Source: Klebsiella phage fENko-Kae01. Taken from it: a DNA stretch of 64,000 nt. The position numbers and the translations under genes are program-made. Positions 37,816-63,446 of the stretch are shown here, one piece after another. Numbering within the stretch: position 1 is the first letter of the stretch; every line of letters begins with the position of its first letter. The notes beneath the pieces are model-generated. The model was not told where the DNA came from. It saw only the letters and a program-made list of their open reading frames with translations, and did not search any database. Where the stretch lies: the sequence record OR228459.1. The stretch is one strand, 5' to 3'.

Positions 37816-37827
37816 GGGGCTTTTTTA
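37805..37827. terminator. bidirectional terminator between plus block and minus fibre array
   Basis: A5-GCCCC-GCTAA-GGGGC-T6 overlapping both stop codons. Confidence 0.75.
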
Positions 37828-38472: not shown

Positions 38473-38545
38473 TTTATTTTCCTTAATTTTGCAGACATAT
38501 ATTTAATTAGAAAAATCCCCTAACTTTGACAGTACATGGATACAT

Positions 38546-39676: not shown

Positions 39677-39687
39677 TTTATTTCTCC

Positions 39688-40866: not shown

Positions 40867-42059
40867 TTTATATCTCCTTGATTTACATTCAATCCATGTT
40901 TCATTGATTCTTTCGTTAAATCTTTTGGGAATTTACCAAATTTGTCTGATATATTAGTATAAGTATCATATGTAATTATTTCTGTTTTAGTATTAAATCT
41001 ACCACACATATATATTGAACCATCTTTCAAGTATACATAAGTTGCTGAGTTACCTAAATCAAGATACACAATATCATTAGTATTAAATGGAACTTGAACT
41101 TTTACTGGAGATACTCTAACGGTTCCATCATTTAATCCTCTAAATGAAGTATTTCCGGTAACATACATACCTTCATTTGTGTAATACATAGTTGTATTAC
41201 AGTTTGAAAATGAATTATCAGCAAGACCTATAATACTGGTTCTCATAGGCCATGAATTACTTATTATAGTGGTTGACGTTAGATTATTAGTAGAACCATT
41301 ACCAAATACACCATTAAAACCAAATCCTCTTCCATACCACGTTTTATCAACATAAGAAGGAAAAATTATTGCATATTGATGATCCTGTAGTGATTTACCA
41401 TATATCTCATCAGTACTAGCATTTCCAATTAATACTGGATATGAATAAAAAGTACTTTCAGGGGCTGATGAAAATATACTAGCTATATTTTGACCACCAC
41501 CATGTACTTGACCCGATGTATTAATTGTCCACCAGTTTGTACCACTATTACCTATAGCTATAATATTTGTACTTACTAAATTCCAATTTGTATATGGCAC
41601 TGTACTAGAGTTTAAACCCCTTTGTGAACCAATCACTCTGAAAAAATTATTATTATCTATGAAACCAATACTAGGGGAACCTGTATTAAATGAAACTGTA
41701 TCAATAATAATAGAGCCTGAAGAAAAGAAAATATCTTCTTTGAAAGTTGTTTCCATTGTATTGTCATTACTAGTACGATAAACTCTAGAACCCGTATAAT
41801 AGACTTTATTATTAGTTTCTTGAAGCATCAAAGAGTTCCCAAATTGATCCATCCAGAAATTTTTTACGTTATTTCTTATAAGTGTCCAATCTTCATGCCA
41901 TACTTTTGCTTGACCATCACCAAAAGCACCATTGCCTCTACCATGCAATTCCCCATTACTTAATAAAATCATCCAAGATGCTGTACTGAATTGTATTTTA
42001 ACAATCTTAGAATCTTCCGCTATATTGCCATAATTTAACATTCTTGTGAACGGTATCAT
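40863..42059 (-). CDS. MIPF-family fibre-like paralog 4
   Basis: MIPFTRMLNYGN; GRGNGAFGDGQ repeat; ATGA-coupled to paralog 3. Confidence 0.85.
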   Translation of the reverse strand: MIPFTRMLNYGNIAEDSKIVKIQFSTASWMILLSNGELHGRGNGAFGDGQAKVWHEDWTLIRNNVKNFWMDQFGNSLMLQETNNKVYYTGSRVYRTSNDNTMETTFKEDIFFSSGSIIIDTVSFNTGSPSIGFIDNNNFFRVIGSQRGLNSSTVPYTNWNLVSTNIIAIGNSGTNWWTINTSGQVHGGGQNIASIFSSAPESTFYSYPVLIGNASTDEIYGKSLQDHQYAIIFPSYVDKTWYGRGFGFNGVFGNGSTNNLTSTTIISNSWPMRTSIIGLADNSFSNCNTTMYYTNEGMYVTGNTSFRGLNDGTVRVSPVKVQVPFNTNDIVYLDLGNSATYVYLKDGSIYMCGRFNTKTEIITYDTYTNISDKFGKFPKDLTKESMKHGLNVNQGDIK

Positions 42060-42069
42060 CCCCTTCTCC

Positions 42070-43236
42070 TTATATTATTCTTGGTTGCATTGGAACTTTA
42101 TTCCATTTGGTAAAATCTTCAGTTGACCCCGGTATCCATCTTGAATTACCCACTGCATATACCGTATTTTCATGCCAATAATACACGTAATAACCACCTT
42201 GAACAACATGTGTTGGATCGAAGATAATATCTTGAAGAAAACCATTTTGCACTAAGGTTGAATATATTATTGTTGATGTATTACCTATTCCAAATCTACC
42301 ATAGTAATCAGAACCAGAACTATATATAGATTCTGAAGTACAAAGATAAATTGCTCCTTCACTGCAAAAACTATTTGTGTACTGAACAAATTTACTGGCT
42401 AATTCAGAATCAATTAATGTATTTTTTGTTAGTGTCGTGTAATAAGAAGATGCAGTAGTCCCATCAGCACATAAACCATTACCACGAAACCCGCTCATAT
42501 ATACATCATTGCTTTCTGTAATAATCAAGACATTATTAGCACTTAAAATAATGGTTTTTATTGGCAATGTAAACGGTACTTTATAGAATATAGGTTGCTC
42601 ACTTGAAAATCCTAGACCTAAAGTTCCATATAAATTTCTTCCAGTACCGAAAAGTTCACCTGATGTACTAATATAAAATGAGGCATCACTTGATGAACTT
42701 AATGAACTATAAATTTCTTTCACTCCACTAGCTACACGTTTAAATGATGCTGAAGGTGTAGTACCTAAACCAATATTACCGTACTGATTATTTGATGCAT
42801 ATGTTCCTTGACCAATAGCATAAAGCTGTTCATCTTGTAATAAAAATAATCCTCTACTTCCAAACATTAATTTGGCTTTGTTTAAATCAAAGTTATTGAA
42901 AGTTGATGTTATTTCAGTAAATGTATTTAAATATCCAGATGATGCTCCCAATGATGCTCGATAACCAGTAAAAAACACTTTATTATTTTCAGTAATAATT
43001 AAAGTACAGTCAACACCAACATATATATCTTTTATATTTTCGATTGGACATTTTACCCATGTATTTTTGTTTACTAATGTTCCATCACCTAATTGACCAC
43101 TTGTATTATCACCAGTACCAAATGCTTGACCATCATCAAATAGTACAAAAATAAATCCATAATACGAAACAACTTTTTTAATTTTAGTTTTTGGTAAAAT
43201 ATTACCATATGATATAATTCTTGCAAATGGAATCAT
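42070..43236 (-). CDS. MIPF-family fibre-like paralog 5
   Basis: MIPFARIISYGN; GDNTSGQLGDGTLVN RCC1 signature. Confidence 0.85.
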   Translation of the reverse strand: MIPFARIISYGNILPKTKIKKVVSYYGFIFVLFDDGQAFGTGDNTSGQLGDGTLVNKNTWVKCPIENIKDIYVGVDCTLIITENNKVFFTGYRASLGASSGYLNTFTEITSTFNNFDLNKAKLMFGSRGLFLLQDEQLYAIGQGTYASNNQYGNIGLGTTPSASFKRVASGVKEIYSSLSSSSDASFYISTSGELFGTGRNLYGTLGLGFSSEQPIFYKVPFTLPIKTIILSANNVLIITESNDVYMSGFRGNGLCADGTTASSYYTTLTKNTLIDSELASKFVQYTNSFCSEGAIYLCTSESIYSSGSDYYGRFGIGNTSTIIYSTLVQNGFLQDIIFDPTHVVQGGYYVYYWHENTVYAVGNSRWIPGSTEDFTKWNKVPMQPRII

Positions 43237-43312
43237 AATCCCCTCATAATTCTTGTAATTATATTATATTTAATTAAAAAAGGTCAGTACTGGTATTGTA
43301 CTGACCTTTTTA
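43237..43312 (-). promoter_or_regulatory. intra-array terminator + late-type promoter cassette
   Basis: Hairpin GGTCAGTAC-TGGTATT-GTACTGACC + T-run, then TTAATTAAATATAATATAATTACAAGAATTATGAGGGGATT-ATG (minus strand). Confidence 0.6.
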
Positions 43313-44434
43313 TTATTTCCAAGGCATTTTTTCATCGGCAAGTCGAGTAAGCCTATTAAAAAATGAAATTCCATTTATTGGTGTATTACCACATACAAAC
43401 ATATCATCGTTATTATCAATAACCATTGAAAATAAATTATCACCACCAAATGAAACAATATTAGATACTGTACCGAATATCATTGGTGTTAGTGTAGCTT
43501 GTGCTGATGAAGATGCACCATTACCACATTGTCCATAGCTATTAAATCCACAACGCCATATTTGATTGTTAATCCATATCATCGGTGACATACCCAAACT
43601 GTTTGTTAAAGAACCAATTACTCTTAATGGTACAGAAGGATCAAATTGAGTACTGATCTGTACTGAATTAAGTACTGGATTTGTATTACCAACCGAACCT
43701 TGACCTTGTGTGTTAATTGATGCAGTTCGTATAGAACCATCTTTCATAAAATAATATGTTGTATAAAACGTATTAGCAGTGTACAATACATCATCCAATG
43801 TTTTCGTAAATGTAGGTACTGAGGTTGGTGTAGTACCAGATAACATCATCATTCCTGCATAATAACAACTTCCATCACTTAATATTAAACAGGTTGTATT
43901 GAATGAACAGGACATGTACTGAACGTTTTCGATTGAACTATATGTGAATTTAGTAACACTAGCAGAACTACCAGTACCGAAACACCCAGCACTATTGCTT
44001 CCATAAAAGAACCATTTTCCATTATTCAATAATACTCTAATACCTTCAGCAATGTAAACACTTTTTATATCATCTGGCGATACCCCAAAATCTGAAAAGT
44101 ACTTCGTTACATTAACAAAGGATCTTGTATTTTGTGCTATTGGCATACCATATGTACTTCCAGTGTACCACATTATATTATCTTCATCTATAGCCAGTGT
44201 TCCATGTACACCACCGAAATATCTTTTCACTCTGGTTAATACCTTAGTCCACGATGATAGGTTCGTTGTATCACCAGTTCCTAATTGACCCAAGTTATTC
44301 TGTCCAATTGCATATAGATCACCATTACGGTGTAAATACCATGCTGCACTGTAATTTACCTGAACTCGTTCACCCAATATAGTCGGTGCTTTAACTTCAT
44401 TGCCATAACTTAATATTCTTGTAAATGGTATCAT
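43313..44434 (-). CDS. MIPF-family fibre-like paralog 6
   Basis: MIPFTRILSYGN; GQNNLGQLGTGDTTN. Confidence 0.85.
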   Translation of the reverse strand: MIPFTRILSYGNEVKAPTILGERVQVNYSAAWYLHRNGDLYAIGQNNLGQLGTGDTTNLSSWTKVLTRVKRYFGGVHGTLAIDEDNIMWYTGSTYGMPIAQNTRSFVNVTKYFSDFGVSPDDIKSVYIAEGIRVLLNNGKWFFYGSNSAGCFGTGSSASVTKFTYSSIENVQYMSCSFNTTCLILSDGSCYYAGMMMLSGTTPTSVPTFTKTLDDVLYTANTFYTTYYFMKDGSIRTASINTQGQGSVGNTNPVLNSVQISTQFDPSVPLRVIGSLTNSLGMSPMIWINNQIWRCGFNSYGQCGNGASSSAQATLTPMIFGTVSNIVSFGGDNLFSMVIDNNDDMFVCGNTPINGISFFNRLTRLADEKMPWK

Positions 44435-44456
44435 TATTATTCCTCGATTATTTTAA

Positions 44457-45626
44457 TTACATTGGCAATACCAACGGAAGTACTGAACCAATACCATATG
44501 TTGGAACATTACTTTGTATTGTTGGTGCTGTATTTTTTGGTGAAGATGTGGCTATATTAGGAAAAGATGAAGATGGATTAAACAATACTATATTACCAGA
44601 ACCACTCATAAGCATCAACCCATCGTATTTCTCATTTTGTGCACATTTCTCGAATGTTCCAATGTCAACTGTAGAATTCACATAGTTTTTACTTCTATGT
44701 CCACAACCATATATTTCATTATCAACTGTCATGTAATATGATACGCTTCCTGAACTCGTATTAATAAATTTAAAATAGCTACGGAAATTAGCTGGTAGAA
44801 TTGGTAATGTTCCTGATACGAATCCATAAAACCCACTATTAGTATTACCATTACCCAACGAACCATATGATCCCCATCCAGTTCCGTAATATGTCCCATC
44901 AGATAAAAAAATTATACAATTGTTATTGCACATTTTAATTTGATTGATTTTTTGAACATCCACACCCGGAAATGATTCAGTAAATGTTAATACATTAGAA
45001 ACACTACTTGCATTACATTGGTTTTGTGTATTACGTCCAGATGATAGTACTGTGCCATCTTCTAAGATAATTCTTGCTGCTCCAGTACCAGACATACATG
45101 CTACCGCATTTGATGAATTAAACAATTTCTTTAACGAAAAAAAACCAACATTGGCTTTCCCTTGACCTGACCAACCTTCTGTATCAGTACCAATACCCCA
45201 CACCGAACCATCATTATGAATAAGCATAAGACCATTTCTATCAATATTAATGTATTTTATCTCATTAATATCTATTCCGACAAAACTAGATGTAACGTCA
45301 ATCCATGTATTCGAAACTGTTACAGAACTTTTCAATACGTTGTGACCCGTTAACATAACTTTACCAGTACTTGTAATATATATTGTTTGTGAAAAACCAG
45401 TACTACATAACCTAACTTCATCAACTTCGGGAACCATAATCCACTCATTAAATGAATTTGTGTTATTTCCAGTACCCAATTGACCATTGGCATTACTACC
45501 AGACAAATATAACTTTTCATTGTAAATCAATGAATACGTTTCACTATATTCTGAAGTACTCAATAAAATTGATTTTGGTATTGGTGGTGTATTTCCATAT
45601 AACATGATTCTAGCAAATGGTATCAT
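44457..45626 (-). CDS. MIPF-family fibre-like paralog 7
   Basis: Start set to MIPFARIMLYGN; GSNANGQLGTGNNTN. Confidence 0.85.
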   Translation of the reverse strand: MIPFARIMLYGNTPPIPKSILLSTSEYSETYSLIYNEKLYLSGSNANGQLGTGNNTNSFNEWIMVPEVDEVRLCSTGFSQTIYITSTGKVMLTGHNVLKSSVTVSNTWIDVTSSFVGIDINEIKYINIDRNGLMLIHNDGSVWGIGTDTEGWSGQGKANVGFFSLKKLFNSSNAVACMSGTGAARIILEDGTVLSSGRNTQNQCNASSVSNVLTFTESFPGVDVQKINQIKMCNNNCIIFLSDGTYYGTGWGSYGSLGNGNTNSGFYGFVSGTLPILPANFRSYFKFINTSSGSVSYYMTVDNEIYGCGHRSKNYVNSTVDIGTFEKCAQNEKYDGLMLMSGSGNIVLFNPSSSFPNIATSSPKNTAPTIQSNVPTYGIGSVLPLVLPM

Positions 45627-46325
45627 ATTTGAACCTCCCACATCTTAACATATTGTATCCTACCTTTGAATAAAACTGGATTAGCATTATTATCTCCAGC
45701 AACATATGAGCCAAATAAACTAAAATACTGATTATCTGGTGATAATATTTGATACCAAGGAAATGTTTGTGTTTCATTAAAAAGTTCAGAATGTACAGTA
45801 ACAGAAATACCTTTTCTAAACTCCATTTTTATAGTATCCCATGCATTGGGGTTAGACCATGTTGGAAGTATTCGGGCAAAATTATTTCCCCAATCTATGA
45901 ATACTTGATTATATGTAGCACTATATTGGTTGAATGCATTAACAAATCCCGATATTCTTCTGCTATTATAATTACCAGTTTCAAATAACGTTTGCCCCCC
46001 CAAGTGGTGAACATTTCATTCTATATTCTATGGCAAATGCATTATACAGACTGAAGTCTAATTTGATTCCTTTTACTGGATTTATAGTTCTAAAATAAAC
46101 ACTACTATTTGTACAATCCAATACATTAGACCCTATTTCATCATCATATACCACAGTTCCGGCGATGGGATTAGTTATACCTATTTGTGAACGTTGTAAA
46201 AATGCATTACCTGCTCTATCAGGAATACCAGTACTACCAATTTTTTGAGTACTGTAATCTACATCAAGTATCATTTTTTCGGGTGCAATATTCCCGTATT
46301 TTAATATCATTGAAAATGGTATCAT
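45623..46325 (-). pseudogene. MIPF-family paralog 8 (lectin-like), split by frameshift at G7 homopolymer; phase-variable or slippage-dependent
   Basis: ORF 45981-46325 (MIPFSMILKYGN...) and ORF 45623-46003 overlap at CTTGGGGGGGCAAAC; deleting one G fuses frames into ~238-aa protein. Confidence 0.6.
45995..46001 (-). repeat. poly-G(7)/poly-C(7) homopolymeric tract at frameshift site
   Basis: Read directly: TTTGCCCCCCCAAGTGG on plus strand. Confidence 0.9.
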
Positions 46326-46412
46326 AATCCCCTCATAATTCTTGTAATTATATTATATTTAACCAAAAAAAGCCAGTACACCATTTTTAGTACTACACGA
46401 AATTTAAGTTTA
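46326..46412 (-). promoter_or_regulatory. intra-array promoter cassette (copy 2)
   Basis: Conserved ATAATTCTTGTAATTATATTATATTTAA sequence upstream of paralog 8. Confidence 0.55.
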
Positions 46413-47597
46413 CTATAATTTCCACGGTAATTGCATTAGAGATTGAAAATATCCATTGAAAATATCATTTGTTAAACAAGTTGGGTTCGTGTTTTTCCCG
46501 CAGCCCAAAATAATATTTTCATCCCTGCATATATATCCATTATAATAATTACATATAATAATATCATGTTCTTTGCAAATTATATCAGGAACTATAGTAT
46601 ATGTACCTATATATTGGGGTGATGTTCCTAAACCCAACGCATAATTATAATTATTTCCAGTACTATATAATCTATTATTAATATCAACATACATGGAAAC
46701 GCCACTATGCATTGTATATACTTTACCAAAATAATTATAATCATTACATGAATTCGGTAATTCCACGGTGATCATATTACCTGATGTATTTTGATTCGTA
46801 TTCGTTGTATTTCCATCACCGAATGCCCCGGCTGAATTCGTACCAATACAATATGCTGTTGACTTAGTATACGCAATCGTATTGTTAGTAGACATCCTAA
46901 CCTGAAGTATAGGTTCACTTACAGTACTAAACATTCGATGAAAACGAACAATATTCTCATTATTAATGCCACCCTCAGTACTGGTTTTTATACAATATGA
47001 TGCATTCCTACCAGCACCCCACACTGTCCCGTCTTTTTTAATATATACACTATTTTGTGAAGTAATAGAACAATCTTCAACATCAGTATCTATCAATGTC
47101 AATGGGAAATATCCAGTACTACCAACACCTAATTCACCATAACGATTAAGTCCAATACCATAAAGTTCACCATTGTTTAATAATACAAATGTATTATTCT
47201 CAGGAACTATTTTTTTAATATCTGATATATTAATAGAACTAAACAAGTTAGAGATATCAGTAAATGTCGTATACCCTGATGCTGTACCACTGTTATTCTG
47301 AATTGCTCGATCGCCTGATAAAAATATTTTATCATCATGCGAAATATATATAGTACTTCCAATCCCATTAGTACATAACTTAATATCCGATTCTGGTATT
47401 TTAAATAAAGATCTAGGTCTATCTGATTTATGACCCAACCCCAATTGACCATATGCGTTATACCCACCAACATAGGCATCGCCGGTGCTTAATAAAATAC
47501 TATAAGAAACATTAGAACTAAAACTTAAATTCATTTGTTTGATATATGGTATTTCTCTTATATTACCGTATGTCAATATCCTAGCAAATGGTATCAT
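46413..47597 (-). CDS. MIPF-family fibre-like paralog 9
   Basis: MIPFARILTYGN; GYNAYGQLGLGHKSD. Confidence 0.85.
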   Translation of the reverse strand: MIPFARILTYGNIREIPYIKQMNLSFSSNVSYSILLSTGDAYVGGYNAYGQLGLGHKSDRPRSLFKIPESDIKLCTNGIGSTIYISHDDKIFLSGDRAIQNNSGTASGYTTFTDISNLFSSINISDIKKIVPENNTFVLLNNGELYGIGLNRYGELGVGSTGYFPLTLIDTDVEDCSITSQNSVYIKKDGTVWGAGRNASYCIKTSTEGGINNENIVRFHRMFSTVSEPILQVRMSTNNTIAYTKSTAYCIGTNSAGAFGDGNTTNTNQNTSGNMITVELPNSCNDYNYFGKVYTMHSGVSMYVDINNRLYSTGNNYNYALGLGTSPQYIGTYTIVPDIICKEHDIIICNYYNGYICRDENIILGCGKNTNPTCLTNDIFNGYFQSLMQLPWKL

Positions 47598-47674
47598 ACA
47601 TTCTCCTTATTTGTACAATTATATTATATTTAATTAAAAATGACAGTACTTATGTAGTACTGTCATTTTTCTTA
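47598..47674 (-). promoter_or_regulatory. intra-array terminator + promoter cassette (copy 3)
   Basis: AATGACAGTAC-TTATGTA-GTACTGTCATT hairpin + T-run; conserved promoter block. Confidence 0.6.
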
Positions 47675-48478
47675 TTATGTAGTTGGGCCTACATTACTTG
47701 TGGGAAATCTACGACCACCTCCCCAAATAATACGCACACCACCCAATCCTTCATCAGTACTTGTATTACCAGCACCACGATATATGGTTGTACCCGGAAC
47801 CGCACTACCTGAACTACCACGATAATGTGCAGCAGAACCACTTCCAGATTCACCCATACCAAATAAACCAACTGCACCACCTGAAGCAGCTATACCGCCC
47901 CCTCCGCCAGCACCACCAGCACCAGAACTGCCAGATGAACTACTTGCACCATTACCACCATTACCTTCATAGCCACCAGCACCACCTGAGCCGCCTCTTT
48001 CATATCGATAAGTACCAGAAGTCGGCCCACTACCACCTCTACCACCATCGCCGCCGCCATCGTTTATTTGACTGGCATTCTTTCCACCAACACCTCCTGA
48101 CCCTCCGGCACCACTAGACATTGTAGTACCATAACTGCCCATTTTTCCACCACCAGCAATGCAAGCATTTGAGTTATTTTGTAATACATAAGAATTTCCA
48201 CCATCAGAATTGGCTGTATAACCATTTACACCAACTGTAACTGATAGTACTTCACCGGGAGTTACCACTACATCATTCCTATAACTTAAACCACCGCCAC
48301 CGCCACCACCACCAGTACTTCCAGTGCCAACCCTACCACCACCGCCAACACATAATATACATATAGATTCAACATCATCTGGTACTATAAACTCAAATGT
48401 TCCAGATTGAACCCAGACCATTTCCCCTTTTGGTGGTAATTTATTTCCGTATGTTAGCATTTTTGTAAATGGTATCAC
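47675..48478 (-). CDS. MIPF-family paralog 10 with glycine-rich C-terminal domain
   Basis: MIPFTKMLTYGN then FEFIVPDDVESICILCVGGGG and long GGxGG tracts. Confidence 0.8.
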   Translation of the reverse strand: MIPFTKMLTYGNKLPPKGEMVWVQSGTFEFIVPDDVESICILCVGGGGRVGTGSTGGGGGGGGLSYRNDVVVTPGEVLSVTVGVNGYTANSDGGNSYVLQNNSNACIAGGGKMGSYGTTMSSGAGGSGGVGGKNASQINDGGGDGGRGGSGPTSGTYRYERGGSGGAGGYEGNGGNGASSSSGSSGAGGAGGGGGIAASGGAVGLFGMGESGSGSAAHYRGSSGSAVPGTTIYRGAGNTSTDEGLGGVRIIWGGGRRFPTSNVGPTT

Positions 48479-48488
48479 GATTGTCTCC

Positions 48489-49622
48489 TTAATTAATTCT
48501 TATTTTAGTAAAAATATTATTTTCTGAACCATCAGATTTTTTTCCCGGTAAAACACTAATACTTCCAACTCCCCAAATATCATTTCCATCAAATATTAAA
48601 GAATAAAAAGTTCCACCCAAAATCTGTACTTTTTTGTTATCTTGTACTGTTGTAAATTTAGGAATTTCTTTAAAAATAGAGGATGCCTGTGGTAAGCCAC
48701 TATATTCAACTAGACCCGTTGCATAAAATGTACCGTTAGTACCTAAAAATATATTTCTGTTTGGTGTACCCTTTAACTTTCCTCCAATAACCATTTGGGA
48801 TGGCATGTTTATTTTGGTTGACCAAGATTTAAGCTGAGTATTTGAATTTACACCGTCACCTAATATCCCATTAATTTGCCAACCAGAACCTGCTATTGTC
48901 GTTGGTGTCCAATATGATAATGTACTAGCACGTGTTGCCATAAAGGATGATGTGCCACCATTAAGTATTATCCCCCACGTATACTTATTTTCTGAATTAC
49001 CAGAACCAAATTGACCATAAGGCTGTTGTCCCGCTCCATACAAATATACGGAAGTGGGTGAAATTCCACGAGCTATCATAGAATAGTCTCCAACATATAA
49101 TTCTTGATGGTAAGTAGTACCAACTCGCGTAAATGAACTTATCCGATTTGTAGATCCTAGACCACACGCCCCATTACTATTCCAACCTCTTGAATATAAT
49201 TGATTGTCGATATCAATATATCCCATAGTGTATAAACCAATATCTAATTCTTTCACCGAATCATAAGATGGCATAGTATTAGTTATATCATCACCTTCTA
49301 TTGGAGATAATCCACCAGTAGTATTCTTGGTTCCTAATACATCATAGTTTCCATTAAAAATCCATTTTCCATCCTTAGTATATATTAATGTACTCTTAGA
49401 ACCACACCAAACATCTTCTGCATTTCTATCCAGTACTACAAACTCGTAGTACTGATATGTTGCTGTGCAATCCTTTAACTGATTAGAATTGTTATAACCA
49501 ATACCATATAGTAATCCACTTTCCATTAATACCACATAATGTGTATCACCACATGATATTTTCTTTATATTACTTGGTACAACTACATTACCATATCCCA
49601 ATATCCTCGCAAATGGTATCAT
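48489..49622 (-). CDS. MIPF-family fibre-like paralog 11
   Basis: Start set to MIPFARILGYGN; GWNSNGACGLGSTNR. Confidence 0.85.
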   Translation of the reverse strand: MIPFARILGYGNVVVPSNIKKISCGDTHYVVLMESGLLYGIGYNNSNQLKDCTATYQYYEFVVLDRNAEDVWCGSKSTLIYTKDGKWIFNGNYDVLGTKNTTGGLSPIEGDDITNTMPSYDSVKELDIGLYTMGYIDIDNQLYSRGWNSNGACGLGSTNRISSFTRVGTTYHQELYVGDYSMIARGISPTSVYLYGAGQQPYGQFGSGNSENKYTWGIILNGGTSSFMATRASTLSYWTPTTIAGSGWQINGILGDGVNSNTQLKSWSTKINMPSQMVIGGKLKGTPNRNIFLGTNGTFYATGLVEYSGLPQASSIFKEIPKFTTVQDNKKVQILGGTFYSLIFDGNDIWGVGSISVLPGKKSDGSENNIFTKIRIN

Positions 49623-49640
49623 ATATCCCCCATAATTCAT

Positions 49641-49696
49641 GTAATTATACTATATTTAATTAAAAAAGGCTAGTACGCACTTGTACTAGCCATCTC
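49641..49696 (-). promoter_or_regulatory. intra-array terminator + promoter cassette (copy 4)
   Basis: GGCTAGTAC-GCACTT-GTACTAGCC hairpin; conserved promoter block. Confidence 0.6.
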
Positions 49697-50842
49697 TCAA
49701 TTAATAGATTTAATATCAACTTCTGCACCCAATGACAATTTAGTAAAGGTAGTTGTATCTTGACTTAAGGAAGGAAAAGAAGAACCACTATACCAAATTG
49801 TATTTCTAGTTATTATCATAGTATTAGTTGAATTAGCACATATTCCAATTATATCATTAAGTACTAACTCATCTGGCAAATTAATAATTGTCTTATTTTG
49901 GGGCGTAACCTTATTACCTAAACCCAATTGTCCACTTGTATTATTTCCAGTACAATATAAATCATTATTCACACTAAAAAATGTACCATAACGTGTTAAT
50001 ATAGAATATGGATGATTGAAAAACTTATTAGCACCAACCATACTATACAAACCCGTAATACCAATTTGGGCTGTACTTCCATTACCCATACAATAATAAG
50101 TACCTAATCCCGCTCCATATATCCAACTTTGATTAATAGACATAACCGCCGATGGCATTAAACTCCATGAAATGTTAGAAGTTCTAGGAGCAGAAGCAAC
50201 TTGTACTTCATTCGGCGTAGGTGATGTTCCAAGCATCGATGGTGCATTACCAAAACCACAGATAACATCATATGCACTGAACCATTTTCGATAAGCCGTT
50301 ATGCCATTATAAAGCTGTACATCTTTAACCCTAGAAACCATTAAAGTAGGTACTGATAACATTCCATTTAAGGCAACCTTATTACTTAAACTATAAGTAC
50401 TATTCCTACCAACCATATATAAATCACCATATGTGCGATCAGTCGAATTCGGTATTAAATAAGCCATGTTGTTTAAAGTAGCTGTAATGTTATAAGCATC
50501 ACTAGGAATAGTAAAGGGAAGTTTGGTAAAACTATATACATTACTATTAAGCCCTAAACATGTGCGGTTGCCAGATATATAGTACTGACCATCATTTCCT
50601 TGAATGATCACACTCATATCAGTAGCACATACCACTTTTTTAATATTACCTGCAATCAATCTCCATTCAGATAATGGTGCAGAATCACCAGTACCCAATT
50701 GACCCTGACTATTATCCCCTAATGCAAATAAATTACCAATAGAATCTATATATAATGCAAAATAATTCAATCCACAGAATTGAACTATTTTTGCATCCGG
50801 TAATGTGTTCCCATAATCCAATATCCTAGCAAACGGTATCAT
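49697..50842 (-). CDS. MIPF-family fibre-like paralog 12
   Basis: MIPFARILDYGN; GDNSQGQLGTGDSAP. Confidence 0.85.
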   Translation of the reverse strand: MIPFARILDYGNTLPDAKIVQFCGLNYFALYIDSIGNLFALGDNSQGQLGTGDSAPLSEWRLIAGNIKKVVCATDMSVIIQGNDGQYYISGNRTCLGLNSNVYSFTKLPFTIPSDAYNITATLNNMAYLIPNSTDRTYGDLYMVGRNSTYSLSNKVALNGMLSVPTLMVSRVKDVQLYNGITAYRKWFSAYDVICGFGNAPSMLGTSPTPNEVQVASAPRTSNISWSLMPSAVMSINQSWIYGAGLGTYYCMGNGSTAQIGITGLYSMVGANKFFNHPYSILTRYGTFFSVNNDLYCTGNNTSGQLGLGNKVTPQNKTIINLPDELVLNDIIGICANSTNTMIITRNTIWYSGSSFPSLSQDTTTFTKLSLGAEVDIKSIN

Positions 50843-52038
50843 ATATTATCCTCTCTTAAATTAAAATCTGTTATTAATGTAAAATTCTCAGATAATGGTG
50901 TACTTAATGGCGTAAATCCAACACCAGCACTTGTTGTTAACCCCGAACCCTTTGCATATAGTAACGGGGCCATATTCAATGCACAAAGAGCAAACATCCT
51001 CGTATTTGTATAAGCCCTATATGTGTTCCCATTGCCCTGTACTGTATATCTTGGCGTGAATGTGAGAAGACGATCTCCACCACCTCCATCCATATAACCC
51101 GCAAAATATAGTACACCATTAGTATCAGATAGGATATTCGTCCAATACGTCTGGATGGATGTCCCAAATAGTGATAATAAATTACCCGGCTTAAATGCTA
51201 ATTGTGCAGTATATAACCGAACATTCGCATCTACACTAATATTACCTATCCCCCACGCACCAGCATAATTTCTTCCTGAACAATAATATTTTCCGTCCGT
51301 CCTAAAAAGCATAAAATGTGTTTGACTTATACGAAATGCATTATATTCATAATCTACCTCAGATGTAGCCTCAGAAAATAATTGTGTCCATGTAGTATAT
51401 ACAGTACTTTGAGATGTAGTCTGCATCTGTTGATAAGTGTTATCTCCAGTACCCCAAAATGTTCCATCCAAATCCTGATATACTCCATTAATATTCGTTA
51501 TCCAACAATCCTGTACTGACGATTTTAATAGTACTGGCGTGAAACTAGGAGTTTTATTAGCACTACCAAAGTAACCATAATCGTTTTTTCCATGTGCATA
51601 TAATGAACCATCATTCAACAAAATATAAACTGTGTTGTAATTCATTGTTATTTTCTTAATCTTTAATATATCAAAATACGTAGAATAAAATGAAGTCTTA
51701 TCAACCCATGTGGCTGTATTACTAGTACCATCATATATCGTCTGACGACCTGTATAAAATAATTTATCATCATTCGATAATACAAACGTTCCATATGTAC
51801 TACCCCATGCAGTCTTTACATCCCTCTTAACTAAATGCATCTCACCATAGTAATTTACACCAACTGGAAAACCCAAAACATATCCATAATTCTTATCACA
51901 GGTTCCCCATAACTCTCCATTATTCAAATGCATCCACATCGTCGCGGCGGTATTATCCGAATCCAAAAAGAAGTCAATCACTTTTGCGGGTGCTGCTACC
52001 TTATTCCCATACTCTAATATCCTAGTAAATGGTATCAT
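50839..52038 (-). CDS. MIPF-family fibre-like paralog 13 (first gene of array)
   Basis: MIPFTRILEYGN; GKNDYGYFGSANKTP, GRNYAGAWGIGN. Confidence 0.85.
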   Translation of the reverse strand: MIPFTRILEYGNKVAAPAKVIDFFLDSDNTAATMWMHLNNGELWGTCDKNYGYVLGFPVGVNYYGEMHLVKRDVKTAWGSTYGTFVLSNDDKLFYTGRQTIYDGTSNTATWVDKTSFYSTYFDILKIKKITMNYNTVYILLNDGSLYAHGKNDYGYFGSANKTPSFTPVLLKSSVQDCWITNINGVYQDLDGTFWGTGDNTYQQMQTTSQSTVYTTWTQLFSEATSEVDYEYNAFRISQTHFMLFRTDGKYYCSGRNYAGAWGIGNISVDANVRLYTAQLAFKPGNLLSLFGTSIQTYWTNILSDTNGVLYFAGYMDGGGGDRLLTFTPRYTVQGNGNTYRAYTNTRMFALCALNMAPLLYAKGSGLTTSAGVGFTPLSTPLSENFTLITDFNLREDNI

Positions 52039-52181
52039 ATTATCCCCCTATAATTATCATTATATCATATTTACCCATATATATACCCTTTTTAATATAT
52101 TAGAAAACTCTATAGTACTACCATATATACACCATATAAACGCATAGAAAGCCATAAGAGAAGACTTCTCCAATATTATAC

Positions 52182-52242
52182 ACAGGTGTAGCTCCTGTAG
52201 ATAGCGGCTCTTAGACGCTTATCGAAAGGATTCAACACCTGT
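52182..52242. repeat. large inverted repeat ACAGGTGT...ACACCTGT enclosing 45 nt
   Basis: 8-bp perfect arms read directly in non-coding control region. Confidence 0.5.
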
Positions 52243-52394
52243 AAAAATACCCAATTGTTAATATGTACAGTACTTTTACTTTTAAAATTATTCAGGAAAT
52301 AGTTACACATTGAACTATATTAGTAAGTACTAATGGAAGCTACTATTCAGTACTTACCCCCTTCCGCTATATCTTCTCTGTATAAGAAGATAGA

Positions 52395-52580
52395 AAAGTA
52401 CTAAAAAGTACTACACACCTTTTTTACAAAGTACCATTCAACCTTTTTCCCGAAAGTACTCCATCCTAAATCCCAATCCTAGAAATTTTGGAGTACCCTC
52501 CAACCTCCAGCTAAAATCTCAAAAGTACTCCATCCTAAATCTGAATCAACAAAATGCTGGACAACCATTCAGTACTAAAT
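52395..52580. repeat. iteron-like AGTACT-containing direct repeats (two exact copies of AAAGTACTCCATCCTAAATC 69 bp apart)
   Basis: 52453-52472 and 52522-52541 identical; additional AAAGTACT/GAGTACC units at ~25-35 bp spacing. Confidence 0.6.
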
Positions 52581-52699
52581 TATAATGTTATTAGTGGGAA
52601 TCTACCCTCGTATATATGATGCTGTATATAATATCAGTACTGAACGAATTAACAGTATTAGTAGATATACCAGTACTGAAAATATTTTGAAAATAGTTG

Positions 52700-52728
52700 T
52701 TGACACCGTGGGAATATTTTGACATAAT
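52700..52728 (+). promoter_or_regulatory. promoter TTGACA-N17-CATAAT in control region
   Basis: Consensus spacing; only a 22-codon ORF downstream. Confidence 0.45.
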
Positions 52729-53064
52729 ACACGGCATGGAAGATGTGGTGAGTTATCATCCTGACTTCTGTCTTGTTTATGAAAATAGATTGAAACAGTA
52801 CTAACACGTTTATAACAACGTAACAGTACTGATATGAAGTGAAAAGTATTACCCACCAGCTTAAGCTGGTGGATGTGGTTAGAATAATAAGAAGGGGAAT
52901 CCCCAATCATACGATGAACTATATTCAATTCTACCAGTACTGCGAATAGTTACTCCACAAGAATGAGAAGACTGTTGTAGTACTGAACTTTTTATGACGA
53001 GAAAATTTGAATAGATTTTGGGTGTACTTATCCTGTACTCTGGACGGATTAAGGGCGTGTTTGA

Positions 53065-53150
53065 TTCTCATTCGCATATAAGAATGATAAACTTTCTCAA
53101 CATGAGAATGGTTCTCAGTTGCAAATAAGAATAGTTCTCAAATGAGAATA
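53065..53150. promoter_or_regulatory. four operator-like TTCTCA...(G/A)AGAAT inverted-repeat sites at ~25-bp spacing
   Basis: TTCTCAacaTGAGAA and TTCTCAaaTGAGAA palindromes plus two longer-spacer versions. Confidence 0.5.
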
Positions 53151-53314
53151 ATAATGATTATCGTTTTCAGTACTAGACTAATTTTTCCATTGGCTAGCCT
53201 ACCGCGACGGAATATAATATTCCGGCAGTATCACGAATCAGCTTGTTTTAAATCTGCCGTTATTATCTCAATATCTGGGTAGAATGTCAAGCTAATATTT
53301 TAAAAAATAAATGC

Positions 53315-53343
53315 TTGACACGTTGGCAGTACTTTGCTATTAT
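53315..53343 (+). promoter_or_regulatory. promoter TTGACA-N17-TATTAT driving non-coding IR-element transcript
   Basis: Perfect -35; no protein-size ORF before next promoter. Confidence 0.6.
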
Positions 53344-53370
53344 ATACACATAGCAAGAACAATGCTCAAG

Positions 53371-53458
53371 CCCACAGGGTGCGGAGGTGTATTCGTTAAA
53401 AGCTAAATGCGAATGATTATCATTTCGCTCATATGATACATTTCCGCACCCTCTAGGG
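53371..53458 (+). ncRNA. IR-element (CCCACAGGGTGCGG ... AATGATTATCATT ... CCGCACCCTCTAGGG), putative structured sRNA
   Basis: Homologous copy in inverted orientation at 59647-59726; flanked by convergent promoters. Confidence 0.45.
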
Positions 53459-53485
53459 TCTCCGCTTTCTCGCGTCTATATAGTA

Positions 53486-53514
53486 ATTATACGGTAATGC
53501 GGTTTATGCGTCAA
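53486..53514 (-). promoter_or_regulatory. minus-strand promoter (AAAAGTACTTGACG-N17-TATAAT) converging on IR element
   Basis: Reverse complement of 53486-53526 gives consensus promoter. Confidence 0.55.
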
Positions 53515-53591
53515 GTACTTTTTTAAAGAAAATCGAAAATAATTTAGTACTATATGTATATAAGGAAGGAAAAAGAATTTTCAAAAAGTAC

Positions 53592-53620
53592 TTGCATTCT
53601 AATTTAACCTATTGCATAAT
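53592..53620 (+). promoter_or_regulatory. early promoter AAAAAGTACTTGCAT-N17-CATAAT
   Basis: First of ~22 early promoters sharing AAAAGTACTTG(A/C)(C/A)(A/T) upstream box. Confidence 0.6.
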
Positions 53621-53664
53621 AGCTACATCGAAACGAGATACACAAACACATTAAGGAAAACGAT

Positions 53665-53898
53665 ATGATTCGCATTGTTCGCATTAATTACTCTACCGGT
53701 GAAGCTGATAAAGTAGCGGTTATTGTATCAGAAAAGAATGATGATCATCTACACAATACGCTGATGCGTTTTGTTAGTGCGGTTGACCGTTGGGCTAGTA
53801 TTGAGTACTTAGAAACGTTTAAAGTCCCTGCCGTCCAGCTTAACGGGCATGATATTAAAGCAATTTGGAATGCTGACGAAATGATCGCGAACATGTAA
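53665..53898 (+). CDS. hypothetical early protein
   Basis: 77 aa, TTAAGGAAAACGATATG leader. Confidence 0.55.
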   Translation: MIRIVRINYSTGEADKVAVIVSEKNDDHLHNTLMRFVSAVDRWASIEYLETFKVPAVQLNGHDIKAIWNADEMIANM

Positions 53899-53924
53899 TT
53901 ATTTCAAGTACTATCAAAATTTAC

Positions 53925-53952
53925 TTGACTTACTTTGATAGTACTTTATAAT
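53925..53952 (+). promoter_or_regulatory. early promoter, class B UTR (ACTTACATACAAACGAAGTACTATTAAGGAAA)
   Basis: TTGACT-N16-TATAAT. Confidence 0.6.
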
Positions 53953-53989
53953 ACTTACATACAAACGAAGTACTATTAAGGAAAGCATT

Positions 53990-54121
53990 ATGATCACTAT
54001 CGAGAAAATCCGTTTAGCAGTAGAAGAACTGATCGCGGCTGGCTGGATTGTCGCAGAAAGTGAAGAAGAAATTAACATTGTAGTAAATGGTATGTATTCA
54101 GTTATGACAAACGTGGAGTAA
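53990..54121 (+). CDS. small hypothetical early protein (43 aa)
   Basis: ATG after conserved TTAAGGAAAGCATT leader; below ORF-track cutoff. Confidence 0.4.
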   Translation: MITIEKIRLAVEELIAAGWIVAESEEEINIVVNGMYSVMTNVE

Positions 54122-54138
54122 GTTAGTATTAAAAGTAC

Positions 54139-54167
54139 TTGCATTTACTTAGCGAGTACTTTATAAT
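54139..54167 (+). promoter_or_regulatory. early promoter, class B UTR
   Basis: TTGCAT-N17-TATAAT. Confidence 0.6.
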
Positions 54168-54203
54168 ACTTACATACAAACGAAACACTATTAAGGAAAT
54201 ATC

Positions 54204-54821
54204 ATGGAAAACATTATCGACGTTATCAAGTCTGTTTCTTATGCTGATCTGAATGAAGCACAAAAAGAAAAAGCTATTGAGATCATGCGAGAGTTAGAGA
54301 ATCAAGAAATGACTCCGTTTTGGTCTGTAGATATTACTGATCAATGGAAAGAAACTTTAGACACTGAATACGGCATTACTGATGCAGTGATTTATTGGTC
54401 TGGTTTTTGTTCACAAGGTGACGGTGCATCGATTAGTACTGAATACTATATTGATATTGAGAAGTTTTTACGTAAATGTAAAGCGTGGTCAAAATTCCGT
54501 GTACTGCACAAAATTATTGACCGTGAAGAAATTCATGCTAAGATTGATCGTAGCTCAAGCCGTTACAATCATGAAAACACTGTAAGCGGTAGCGTAGAGC
54601 TTGATTATAACATTGATTGGACGGCGAAGCAGGAAAGCGAAGCTGAACGCTTAGAAGAATTTTTGACCGAAACTATTCGCGAACTTTCTTGTAAGCTGTA
54701 TAAAGAACTTGATAATGAGAATGATTATCAAAACAGCGATGATGCCCTTTGGTCTACCATTGAAGCAAATGAATATGATTTTGCTGTAAACTCAAACGGC
54801 GACGTTTTGCGTATCGCCTAA
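54204..54821 (+). CDS. acidic early protein
   Basis: 205 aa, very D/E-rich. Confidence 0.6.
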   Translation: MENIIDVIKSVSYADLNEAQKEKAIEIMRELENQEMTPFWSVDITDQWKETLDTEYGITDAVIYWSGFCSQGDGASISTEYYIDIEKFLRKCKAWSKFRVLHKIIDREEIHAKIDRSSSRYNHENTVSGSVELDYNIDWTAKQESEAERLEEFLTETIRELSCKLYKELDNENDYQNSDDALWSTIEANEYDFAVNSNGDVLRIA

Positions 54822-54837
54822 AGTACTGACATACTGT

Positions 54838-54869
54838 AAAACGCTCTATAACGCATTGTAGGGCGTTTT
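54838..54869 (+). terminator. rho-independent terminator
   Basis: AAAACGC...GGGCGTTTT. Confidence 0.5.
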
Positions 54870-54926
54870 AAGGAATAGCAGTATCATTTATCATCTTAAT
54901 TAATTAAACGGCGTAGACGGCGATTT

Positions 54927-55097
54927 ATGAGCAAACAAGATATATTGAAAGGGGATGTTTTATACTGGTTAGATCCTGATGATGGGATCTGTTCTGGATG
55001 GGTAACAGTATTAGACGTTAATACTACAGTACTGGTAAAAGGTGCAACGGCAGAATTTGAAGTGCTACCCGAAGAACTTTATTCGCATGAAGTTTAA
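54927..55097 (+). CDS. small hypothetical protein (56 aa)
   Basis: ATG ORF between terminator and next promoter; weak RBS. Confidence 0.4.
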   Translation: MSKQDILKGDVLYWLDPDDGICSGWVTVLDVNTTVLVKGATAEFEVLPEELYSHEV

Positions 55098-55660: not shown

Positions 55661-55703
55661 TACAGTACTATAATCTATAGATACAATACCGCACCCCGTG
55701 GGC

Positions 55704-55754
55704 TAATGTGTTTTCATGGGTATTATTATGCCAGTACTACAAACATTTGTCAAT
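55704..55754 (-). ncRNA. leaderless mini-ORF (MKTH*) small transcription unit with own promoter
   Basis: Minus strand: TTGACA-N18-ATAATA, TSS at ATG, ATGAAAACACATTAG, then CCCACGGGGTGCGG arm and the bidirectional terminator. Confidence 0.45.
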
Positions 55755-55931
55755 CATTATTTTCAATTAATTTAAACGCACTGTAACACTGTATAAGGCG
55801 TTTTGTTATTAAGGTAAGCAAACGTATTGAGTACTATCTAAAAGGCCGTTGTGGGCTTGCTGGTGGCGTTGTGTTGTAGTATTGAAATATAAGGAAAATA
55901 TAAAAAAGGCTGTCAATGATTAAAAAAGTAC

Positions 55932-56072: not shown

Positions 56073-56101
56073 TTGACAAGCTGGTGGGAAATTGAGATAA
56101 T
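56073..56101 (+). promoter_or_regulatory. early promoter
   Basis: AAAAAGTACTTGACA-N17-GATAAT. Confidence 0.6.
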
Positions 56102-56797: not shown

Positions 56798-57058
56798 ATG
56801 GCTGTAGGATTCGCGAAAGACGGGGCAGAACAAGACGAGATTTTAGCGGTCATAAACGCCGCTGTAAGCCACGCAAGGAATCAGATAGGGGATAGTACTA
56901 TTACAAGTAGAACGCACTGCCTAGACTGTTCTAGGACTATTCCTGAGCGTAGACGGGAAGTAGTAAAGGGTGTTAAGTACTGCGTAGAGTGTCAGGCTGA
57001 TCATGATAGTATATTTAAAAGAGATCCGCGTAATTGTTGGCACAGATCTATGAGATAG
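56798..57058 (+). CDS. TraR/DksA-family C4 zinc-finger protein
   Basis: CLDCSRTIPERRREVVKGVKYCVECQ matches TraR/DksA C4 finger; start set at ATG after GGGGGA. Confidence 0.7.
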   Translation: MAVGFAKDGAEQDEILAVINAAVSHARNQIGDSTITSRTHCLDCSRTIPERRREVVKGVKYCVECQADHDSIFKRDPRNCWHRSMR

Positions 57059-59393: not shown

Positions 59394-59595
59394 AAAGAAA
59401 CTACACATAGTACAGAAACGAAAGCGTAAAGTACTTAAACTTAAACCAACATATAGTTGGGGATTGTCGTGGGATGAAATCAATCACGGACTATCATGGA
59501 ATCAATTATATGTTATTGGCTCAAGTGTTGGACGCTTTCATTTTAGTACTATATCACGACAAGAAACACGTGTAAACCCATATAAAAGTACTTGA
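59338..59595 (+). CDS. very basic small protein, +1-frame overlap with upstream ORF
   Basis: 85 aa, K/R-rich; 56-nt overlap around CTAGGGGGTAAC. Confidence 0.3.
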   Translation: MNRYTQPYFKGITTAHQRKKKLHIVQKRKRKVLKLKPTYSWGLSWDEINHGLSWNQLYVIGSSVGRFHFSTISRQETRVNPYKST

Positions 59596-59633
59596 CATAT
59601 ATCCGGCTTAGTGAGATAATACTTACAAGCCGG
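59592..59633 (+). promoter_or_regulatory. early promoter with -10 (GATAAT) in loop of CCGGCTT/AAGCCGG hairpin
   Basis: TTGACA-N17-GATAAT; no ORF downstream. Confidence 0.55.
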
Positions 59634-59646
59634 AGAAACGGCGTGA

Positions 59647-59726
59647 CCCATAGGGTGCGAAGAAGTAATCAGTACTTGAGAATGATAATCATTTACAACA
59701 CTAGACAGATTTATGCACCCGATGGG
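59647..59726 (-). ncRNA. IR-element (minus orientation): CCCATCGGGTGCA ... AATGATTATCATT ... CGCACCCTATGGG
   Basis: Homolog of 53371-53458; downstream of leaderless mini-ORF on minus strand. Confidence 0.45.
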
Positions 59727-59776
59727 TTAGATTGTTTTCATGCATATATAATATCAAAGTACTGTTATAGTGTCAA
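59727..59776 (-). ncRNA. leaderless mini-ORF (MKTI*) unit with own promoter
   Basis: Minus strand TTGACA-N17-TATTAT, TSS at ATG, ATGAAAACAATCTAA. Confidence 0.45.
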
Positions 59777-61548: not shown

Positions 61549-61576
61549 TTGCTTTTATGTGCTGGTGGTGTATAAT
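61549..61576 (+). promoter_or_regulatory. promoter with weak -35 (TTGCTT) and TATAAT
   Basis: UTR ACTTGTATTGAAAC... shared with promoter at 63471. Confidence 0.45.
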
Positions 61577-63316: not shown

Positions 63317-63323
63317 TAACACA

Positions 63324-63353
63324 AAGGGGAGCTAACACTCCCCTGTTTATTTG
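63324..63353. terminator. bidirectional terminator
   Basis: GGGGAG-CTAACA-CTCCCC + TGTTTATTT. Confidence 0.65.
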
Positions 63354-63395
63354 TACAGTACTAAATCATATAGATACAATTCCGCACCCTGTGGG

Positions 63396-63446
63396 TTAGA
63401 TTGTTTTCATGACAATAATTATACTTAAAATCGGGTGACGTGTCAA
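63396..63446 (-). ncRNA. leaderless mini-ORF (MKTI*) unit with own promoter
   Basis: Minus strand TTGACA-N17-TATAAT, ATGAAAACAATCTAA at TSS, CCCACAGGGTGCGG arm, ends at bidirectional terminator. Confidence 0.45.

Follow-up and report, generated by a model that had tools for sequence, protein, structure and literature searches.

The non-coding stretch ahead of the early genes in Klebsiella phage fENko-Kae01 as a probable genome end and conserved early-control leader of RaK2-like jumbo phages

The stretch examined here covers positions 52039-53664 (1,626 bp) of a 64,000-nucleotide window from Klebsiella phage fENko-Kae01 (sequence record OR228459.1), the window being the whole piece of DNA that was analysed. 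It is located between a leftward gene block and rightward early genes. As a first-pass annotation of the same DNA had proposed, it is a non-coding control region, densely set with promoters in divergent and convergent arrangement and containing operator-like palindromes. The stretch shares 99.4-99.5% identity with Salmonella phages 7t3, SE_PL, PHA46 and Munch, which are RaK2-like myoviruses of ~350 kb, and sequence similarity places the window itself in a RaK2-like jumbo phage. The genes on the left had been described as a late fibre array, but those flanking the stretch are RCC1-like paralogues, which form a 14-kb tandem island on the minus strand (37825-52038, ~380-400 aa each, negative GC skew), the only large minus-strand block in the window; 13 tandem RCC1-like copies were counted in Munch (PMC8273493).

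Each of the sequence elements listed in the first-pass annotation was recovered in its place. These include an exact 20-mer, AAAGTACTCCATCCTAAATC, at 52453-52472 and 52522-52541, 69 bp apart; an inverted repeat with 8-bp arms, in which ACAGGTGT (52182-52189) pairs with ACACCTGT (52235-52242); a perfect palindrome, CCACCAGCTTAAGCTGGTGG, at 52853-52872; and a near-palindrome, GGAATATAATATTCC, at 53209-53223. Four TTCTCA sites (53065, 53094, 53112 and 53135) are present as well, with GAGAAT or AAGAAT partners at 53080, 53104, 53127 and 53144, though the 25-bp spacing ascribed to them is only approximate, the distances being 29, 18 and 23 bp. As the stretch holds 19 perfect 8-bp inverted repeats, versus 3.5 in shuffles (maximum 13), the repeat at 52182/52235 is unremarkable when taken alone.

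The annotation of 7t3 places nine open reading frames (ORFs) of 29-84 aa in the stretch, as expected if it encodes small proteins. Two minus-strand ORFs of 108 and 82 aa do exceed the 60 aa above which none with a ribosome-binding site (RBS) had been reported; both start with TTG and have neither a PHROG match nor a translated match in relatives, a search in which a real early gene used as a control likewise had no match. The curated Munch record annotates no ORF and SE_PL only one in the stretch, and the conserved parts are promoters, hairpins and palindromes, which run across the ORFs, so that a protein-coding role is considered very improbable.

Nucleotide 1 of the Munch record maps to window position 52370, the Munch genome having been reopened at a PhageTerm-predicted direct terminal repeat (DTR) of 21,296 bp (PMC8273493). 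The terminal repeats of other relatives measure 20,030 bp (Muenster), 22,456 bp (CBB, by read depth and pulsed-field gels), 21,525 bp (vB_Ec-M-J) and 20,993 bp (fEgEco12, by PhageTerm, with restriction digests in agreement). A gene-free segment of 1.3-1.8 kb opens the terminal repeats of these relatives and small early genes then follow. The first 20 nt are colinear from base 1 in Munch (TATCTTCTCTGTATAAGAAG), CBB (TATCCGTTCCTGAAGTCGAA) and Muenster (AGTCCGTTTATAAAGTCGCA), the vB_Ec-M-J and fEgEco12 records begin within the same leader, and the right repeat boundaries of Munch and Muenster have GCCTTAGC(C)AC in common. The boundary was therefore found at a homologous position in relatives with independently determined ends, and the repeats of Munch, Muenster, CBB and fEgEco12 are the same object, a non-permuted repeat of ~20-22 kb with a gene-free start. 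Because the Munch record opens at 52370 and the relatives have the same layout, we take 52370 as the left end and 52370-53664 as the leader of the repeat. Judged from these sequence comparisons, what had been called a late/early boundary appears to be the collapsed junction of a linear genome, in which the unique right end is followed by the left end of a ~21-kb DTR at 52370, and in the virion 52039-52369 would lie immediately before the right-hand copy of the repeat.

Leaders from five genera were aligned together with L015, a 78% identical relative from IMG/VR (L-numbers denote the sequences of relatives), and a common skeleton was revealed in RaK2-like phages of Salmonella, Escherichia, Klebsiella, Serratia, Erwinia and Pectobacterium. 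Its blocks comprise AGTACTCCATCCTAAATC...TTTTGGAGTACC at 85-130 bp from the end, promoter P1 and a hairpin at the position of the Chi palindrome; further on, GGATTTTGGG(C/T)GTA, a variable repeat array, and TTTTCCAnTAG..CCTwCCGCG with a hairpin and GCAGwATC; and rightmost, back-to-back promoters, a convergent promoter pair and the first early-gene promoter (Table 1). Five sigma-70 matches of at least 11/12 occur in the 1,295-bp leader, versus 0.08 in shuffles and 0.49 per leader-sized piece of the unique region. A promoter at the P1 position is also found in L015, vB_Ec-M-J, fEgEco12, Muenster, BF and CBB, and P1 would transcribe the non-coding leader rightward. The 60-bp core of P2 has 88-93% identity in RaK2, K64-1, Muenster, GAP32 and Hallingskeid, the block at 53432-53514 has 94-96% identity in E. 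coli jumbo phages, and the P3 segment is nearly fully conserved in L015. Pieces of 53300-53520 were matched by similarity search at 151 places in 68 jumbo-phage records; no similarity to 53040-53520 was obtained among 5,426 E. coli genomes, so this part is not a mimic of host sequence at the DNA level. The motif upstream of the first early-gene promoter, TATATGTATATAAGGAAGG, is echoed as GTATAAAGGAA motifs in BF and CBB.

The two 20-mers proved to be parts of two copies of a conserved terminal inverted-repeat element, the first copy of which is conserved in vB_Ec-M-J, fEgEco12 and L015 and partly in BF and CBB, while L015 lacks the second 20-mer, a duplicate specific to the lineage. Conserved blocks so near an end, such as the terminal inverted repeats and the arrays, might mainly be packaging signals of the terminase, in the manner of the short-repeat arrays that adjoin the T7 terminal repeat. 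The distances of conserved elements from a fixed end (85-130 bp and 690-790 bp) speak for this, as do ends that are fixed despite a T4-like large terminase. However, the left and right cut sites are without an obvious common motif, and Fur-like boxes also occur deep in the repeat (54711 and 59678), far from any end, and a mainly packaging role is rated as unlikely.

Table 1. Features of the stretch 52039-53664 and copies of the promoter-leader module in the window (functional names are predictions; HP1 and HP2, hairpins of the module).
Feature	Position	Strand	Description
Predicted last unique DNA, 331 bp	52039-52369		5' region of leftward RCC1-like gene (start codon 52038) and 8-bp-arm inverted repeat 52182-52242
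Predicted left physical end, first DTR base	52370-52392	+	Inverted repeat TATCTTCT (52370-77) / AGAAGATA (52385-92); start of Munch record
Conserved terminal element AGTACTCCATCCTAAATC...TTTTGGAGTACC	52453-52541		Inverted-repeat arms 52456-63 and 52489-96; partial second copy 52522-41
Sigma-70-type promoter	52558-52586	+	TGGACA-17-TATAAT; L015 equivalent TTGACA-17-TAACAT
Promoter P1	52700-52728	+	TTGACA-17-CATAAT with TG
Double-Chi hairpin	52853-52872		Each 8-nt arm an exact Chi octamer, in opposite orientations: CCACCAGC ttaa GCTGGTGG
Conserved block CTGGACGGATTAAGGGCGTG	53040-53059	+	Left edge of Fur-like array
GAGAAT/ATTCTC-type hexamer array	53061-53162		Alternating, e.g. TGAGAATgGTTCTCA; best 19-mer GAGAATAATAATGATTATC at 53144-62, 16/19 of Fur consensus
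Structured element	53182-53232	+	TTTTTCCATTGG..CCTACCGCG; hairpin CGGAATAT a ATATTCCG (53207-53224); then GCAGTATC
Leftward promoter	53262-53290	-	TTGACA-17-GATAAT; back to back with P2; kept in L015, vB_Ec-M-J, fEgEco12
Promoter P2 and two-hairpin leader	53315-53396	+	TTGACA-17-TATTAT 53315-43; HP1 53352-66; CCCACAGGGTGC 53371-82
Fur-box-like site GCGAATGATTATCATTTCG	53409-53427		14/19 of Fur consensus; midway between convergent promoters
Leftward promoter-leader module	53432-53514	-	TTGACG-17-TATAAT 53486-514; HP1 53463-74; HP2 53446-58; read as reverse complement
Conserved motif TATATGTATATAAGGAAGG	53551-53569	+	Upstream of first early-gene promoter; surroundings almost fully conserved in L015
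Promoter P3, 5' untranslated region, RBS and ATG of first early gene	53587-53667	+	AGTAC-TTGCAT-17-CATAAT 53587-620; ATG 53665
Module copies	53371, 59647, 61497	+	Within the repeat
Module copies	53458, 55702, 59726, 63395	-	Within the repeat

An RNAalifold analysis of nine homologues of the structured element at 53182-53232 recovered 10 pairs, six of which carry compensatory changes. The stems of the hairpin at 53207-53224 differ among the homologues while pairing is kept (CGGAATAT/ATATTCCG, GGGGA/TCCCC, CTAGT/ACTAG and CTGGT/ACCAG), the outer helix covaries as T(A/T)C..G(T/A)A, and a plus-strand U-G pair was observed in seven of the nine. The near-palindrome therefore appears as a covarying hairpin, with hints that it belongs to a plus-strand RNA, which could originate from P1.

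A further element, the promoter-leader module, consists of a near-consensus promoter, a 3-5-bp hairpin (HP1) located ~8 nt after the -10, and, after 4 nt, CCC-N3-4-GGGTGC, and 31 copies of it were detected across nine phages. The HP1 loops are purine-rich (GAGAAA, AGAACAA, AGATAA and GCGAAA), and 15 distinct stems occur at one position, making 83 pairs, where 2000 permutations averaged 54.5 and never exceeded 70; covariation was assessed by scripted permutation and shuffle tests, a MAFFT alignment of the 31 leaders having failed to register HP1. Seven copies are found in the window, all within the repeat. A 22-nt inverted repeat (53371-92 / 53436-57) folds at -45.5 kcal/mol (z = -4.0), and its reading as one structured small RNA was rejected, as it represents two convergent module copies (53315-53514). 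At 55691-55753 and 63384-63446, the minus-strand copies are followed by intrinsic terminators ~50 nt past GGGTGC and ~80 nt from the predicted start, which makes them candidate small RNAs of ~90 nt. These two units are paralogous, each with a promoter, two hairpins and GTATCTATA..AGTACTGTACAAATAAACAGGG, and their terminator is shared with the upstream plus-strand gene, with a terminator at 63318-63344. An Rfam scan of 51000-55000 at E up to 1 gave no match in the stretch and three weak matches, all outside it. A long palindromic hairpin at 54826-54881, just after an ORF ending at 54821, has weak 'rox1' Rfam matches on both strands and is probably a bidirectional terminator.

The lambda nut and HK022 put sites are promoter-proximal RNA signals, which the modules resemble in having small purine-loop hairpins (such as GAGAAA and GCGAAA) just downstream of early promoters, in recurring at several operon starts, and in having terminators further on. 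The promoter-proximal hairpin is likewise kept by compensatory change, the HP1 pair count being reached in 0/2000 permutations. Unlike nut and put, the stems are only 3-5 bp and some copies are stand-alone units of ~90 nt ending at a terminator; no boxA-like sequence was detected among the 31 aligned leaders and no N-like candidate protein was recognised among the first 18 early ORFs.

The hexamer array and the box between the convergent promoters were compared with the Fur consensus GATAATGATAATCATTATC (PMC4506495). Besides the matches of Table 1, sites of 17/19 at 54711 and 16/19 at 59678 were obtained. Fur-like sites of at least 15/19 number three in the window's repeat versus 0.13 in dinucleotide shuffles (maximum 2), six in the Muenster repeat versus 0.20 expected, and one in the 52-kb unique part versus 0.89 expected, and they combine a close consensus match with the hexamer layout of a Fur box. 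The array, made of inverted hexamers with a ~23-nt period (2.2 copies), is kept in L015 with one extra 23-nt unit, and a similar array is present in the Muenster leader. The 49 nt around the 53409-53427 box are 100% conserved in L015 with variable flanks. Boxes are central in both convergent promoter pairs, and likewise in Muenster, Hallingskeid and BF, where those at the 53409-53427 position score better. The second pair, at 59592-59776, has the same design as that at 53315-53514, its central Fur-like box covering 59678-59696, and the best Fur-consensus match in the window, 54711-54729 (GATAATGAGAATGATTATC), lies within the early ORF 54204-54821. As in Fur operator arrays such as that of the aerobactin iucA promoter, the phage sites, which match the consensus at 15-17/19, have GATAAT/GAGAAT hexamers in forward-forward-x-reverse order and make up contiguous arrays of ~100 bp. 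Unlike Fur operators, however, the present sites are in a virulent phage, off promoters and in some cases between convergent promoters, and they are absent from E. coli-infecting relatives; a literature search for Fur boxes in jumbo phages yielded nothing relevant.

The perfect palindrome consists of two Chi octamers. Exact Chi (GCTGGTGG) occurs 13 times in the window versus 0.57 expected, and 0/100 shuffles reach 13; eight of the 13 sites are in the 11.6 kb of repeat and three more in a Gly-rich coding repeat. The latter, on the minus strand at 47900-48160 (~42% G+C, 'PE-PGRS family protein' in 7t3), supplies three minus-strand matches. The plus-to-minus ratio of Chi, 6:2 for the part of the repeat within the window, reaches 7:1 over the first 29 kb of Muenster and 6:1 in L015 (window orientation), so both over-representation and strand bias were found. 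Further sites at 55859, 56080, 59382, 60434, 61561 and 63574 follow a strong coding-strand bias, with the highest density in the terminal repeat, and Chi lies within promoter spacers at 56080, at 61561 and in P1 of L015. The palindromes of vB_Ec-M-J and fEgEco12 have the same arms and different loops (ACAA and TTGT), and both the hairpin structure and the Chi content may matter. The polarity of RecBCD is established, and on this basis the left arm, CCACCAGC on the plus strand, is oriented such that it would halt RecBCD coming in at 52370, while plus-strand sites face the enzyme coming from the right. The palindrome was also tried as a minus-strand terminator, which was rejected since the U-tract is not conserved in E. 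coli phages. The Chi sites of enterobacterial chromosomes are the same exact octamer, over-represented and strand-biased in the same manner; unlike known Chi, two copies here make up the arms of a hairpin that lies 483 bp away from a genome end, and others lie in promoter spacers.

The run of AGTAC(T/C) units around the 20-mers, which the first-pass annotation had read as iterons, belongs to a much wider pattern. AGTACT is the most over-represented hexamer in the window, with 222 sites versus 17.5 expected (0/100 shuffles reach 222), and its density is 3.0 per kb inside genes (in all frames), 5.1 per kb in intergenic DNA and 12.3 per kb in the stretch, which holds 20 sites. All RaK2-like genera sampled (L004-L012, L014-L018, L025, L027 and L028) show a 16-28x excess. 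Because the motif is enriched throughout the genome and the family (10-28x overall), the AGTAC run marks a local maximum of this motif and is no iteron set. The flanks show no context except a tendency towards CAGTACTG. AGTACT frequently overlaps promoter elements, as in AGTAC-TTGACA and cAGTACTGnTATAAT, an overlap which cannot account for the copies inside genes. We also considered it as the core of the SlmA-binding site (GTGAGTACTCAC) and rejected this, because position -1 is poor in G and GT shows no enrichment at -3/-2. The excess stands opposite to a purge of other 6-bp palindromes, many of which are missing or nearly so in the window: AAGCTT has 0 sites versus 21.8 expected, and ACGCGT, AGCGCT, AGGCCT, CAGCTG, CCATGG, CCCGGG and CCGCGG have 0 sites each, a scarcity consistent with restriction-site avoidance. 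A literature search on AGTACT yielded nothing relevant, and the enrichment suggests that the whole family shares a DNA-reading factor not yet recognised.

A replication origin, which the first-pass annotation had offered as a typical reading of such a region, would use the array as iterons, with promoter transcripts opening or priming the DNA as at T4 and T7 origins, and it could coexist with a terminal leader. Strong predicted promoters do point into AT-rich, repeat-rich non-coding DNA, the copy number of the array differs between relatives as it does for iterons, and gene strand, GC skew and Chi polarity all change at the stretch. Nevertheless, the GC-skew flip at ~52.4 kb has a counterpart at ~37 kb, the minus-strand gene block spanning only 37.8-52.0 kb; since the skew follows gene strand at both, its minimum was rejected as an origin signal. 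A DnaA-box cluster was likewise rejected, with 22 boxes versus 27 expected in the window and one one-mismatch site in the stretch. No set of at least three direct repeats of ~17-22 bp was found, the 20-mer being present in two copies only, one of them not conserved in L015, and no initiator-like gene was seen among the first 18 early ORFs (Pfam). Iteron origins such as those of plasmids and lambda ori are also repeat arrays in AT-rich non-coding DNA with copy-number variation, but the array here is made of inverted hexamers instead of direct 17-22-bp iterons, is wholly different between genera, and is accompanied by neither DnaA-box enrichment nor an adjacent recognised initiator gene. No test gave positive evidence for an origin, which is regarded as improbable, and the interpretation of the first-pass annotation is overall partly supported.

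We propose instead, with a probability of roughly 70%, that the stretch is a genome end together with a conserved early-control leader which uses host RNA polymerase and probably also host RecBCD/Chi and Fur. The stretch would mark the fixed genome end at which packaged DNA is cut, and in the leader host sigma-70 RNA polymerase would meet its first control hub, made up of five near-consensus promoters pointing both ways and the first early-gene promoter. Several of the leader promoters would belong to the repeat-specific module, two copies of which face each other at 53315-53514. The double-Chi hairpin and the further Chi sites of the repeat would probably blunt RecBCD at the DNA ends, and the Chi sites may also feed recombination between repeats. 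The GAGAAT/ATTCTC array is probably bound by host Fur, as is the box flanked by the convergent promoters; the output of early RNA could thereby depend on iron status, or Fur could be sequestered.

Several observations weigh against this proposal. The end position is taken over from the near-identical Munch, sequenced at only 12.4x depth (PMC8273493), and the BF record probably took its start from CBB. The L015 hairpin pairs (CCTCTAG/CTAGAGG) but lacks Chi arms, no Chi is present in the Muenster, BF and CBB leaders, and the orientation of most Chi sites in the repeat is that which meets RecBCD arriving from the right rather than from the left end. A literature search found no transcript data for these phages or their genera. 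The Fur-like sites overlap no obvious -35 or -10 element, the array being 100-200 bp from the nearest near-consensus promoters and the boxes of the convergent pairs ~55-75 nt downstream of both starts. Lastly, no Fur-like sites were found in the leaders of E. coli phages (Asteriusvirus) and CBB, which have at the same position an array of 8-bp period (CTAGACGG, ~12 units), so that the partner of the array could be a phage protein.

The array and boxes might accordingly be operators of a phage-encoded regulator rather than of host Fur, forming a phage-specific early switch. A wholly different array at the same skeleton position in E. coli, Serratia and Pectobacterium phages is what would be expected if site and protein co-evolve, and the presence of boxes tracks phage lineage, not host. 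In these relatives the 8-bp repeats are CTAGACGG, GGCTAAAC and GGCTAGAT, in ~12 units (L005, 809-917; L006 and L007, 660-800 each; L014, 780-920). On the other hand, more than 10 sites in the box-carrying lineages match the 19-bp Fur consensus at 15-17/19 in forward-forward-x-reverse layout, and no DNA-binding regulator was recognised among the early ORFs except a DksA/TraR-type zinc finger. A phage-encoded regulator is a serious rival but, in our estimate, the less likely choice. The Pfam scan of 18 early proteins yielded only this zinc finger and domains of unknown function, with no regulator or initiator candidate among them. The DksA/TraR-type C4 zinc finger (PF01258, E = 3e-8) is found in an early protein of 86 aa (56798-57058, plus strand); the DksA/TraR family is known to bind RNA polymerase rather than DNA, and this protein probably modulates host RNA polymerase by binding.

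The proposed genome end and early-control leader has counterparts in well-studied phages. At the left end of T7, which has a 160-bp repeat, gene 0.3 is preceded by a gene-free leader bearing strong host promoters, and T5 has a ~10-kb terminal repeat bearing pre-early genes for host takeover. As in T7 and T5, a fixed end is combined with a non-coding, repeat-rich leader, with promoters for host polymerase that would fire first, and with early genes by or in the repeat. Unlike T7, the repeat is 21 kb instead of 160 bp, and unlike both phages, the promoters point both ways and include convergent pairs, and the terminase is T4-like. What the terminal repeat is and where it lies has been published before, and the published descriptions of the Munch, Muenster, CBB and fEgEco12 repeats are limited to length and boundary; the anatomy of the leader, such as its Chi sites, Fur-like boxes, hairpin modules and AGTACT, was not found in the searchable literature on these repeats.

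A bolder and rather unlikely extension is that the leader and the whole repeat form a platform for manipulating host factors, with Fur-operator mimics, placed Chi sites, module RNAs and an AGTACT mark. If this is true, the arrayed mimics of Fur operators would serve to sense iron or to titrate Fur during genome replication, and Chi sites deliberately placed in hairpins and promoter spacers would tame RecBCD. Convergent promoters of the promoter-plus-two-hairpin family would produce small RNAs or self-acting signals for antitermination, and the genome-wide AGTACT mark, enriched even inside genes, would be read by some phage or host protein. RaK2-like jumbo phages are under development against Klebsiella, Salmonella and E. 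coli, and for these phages the present analysis offers an element-by-element map of the DNA at the genome end, in which the promoters that would fire first, the recruitment of Fur, the action of Chi against RecBCD and the small structured RNAs of early transcription can each be tested.

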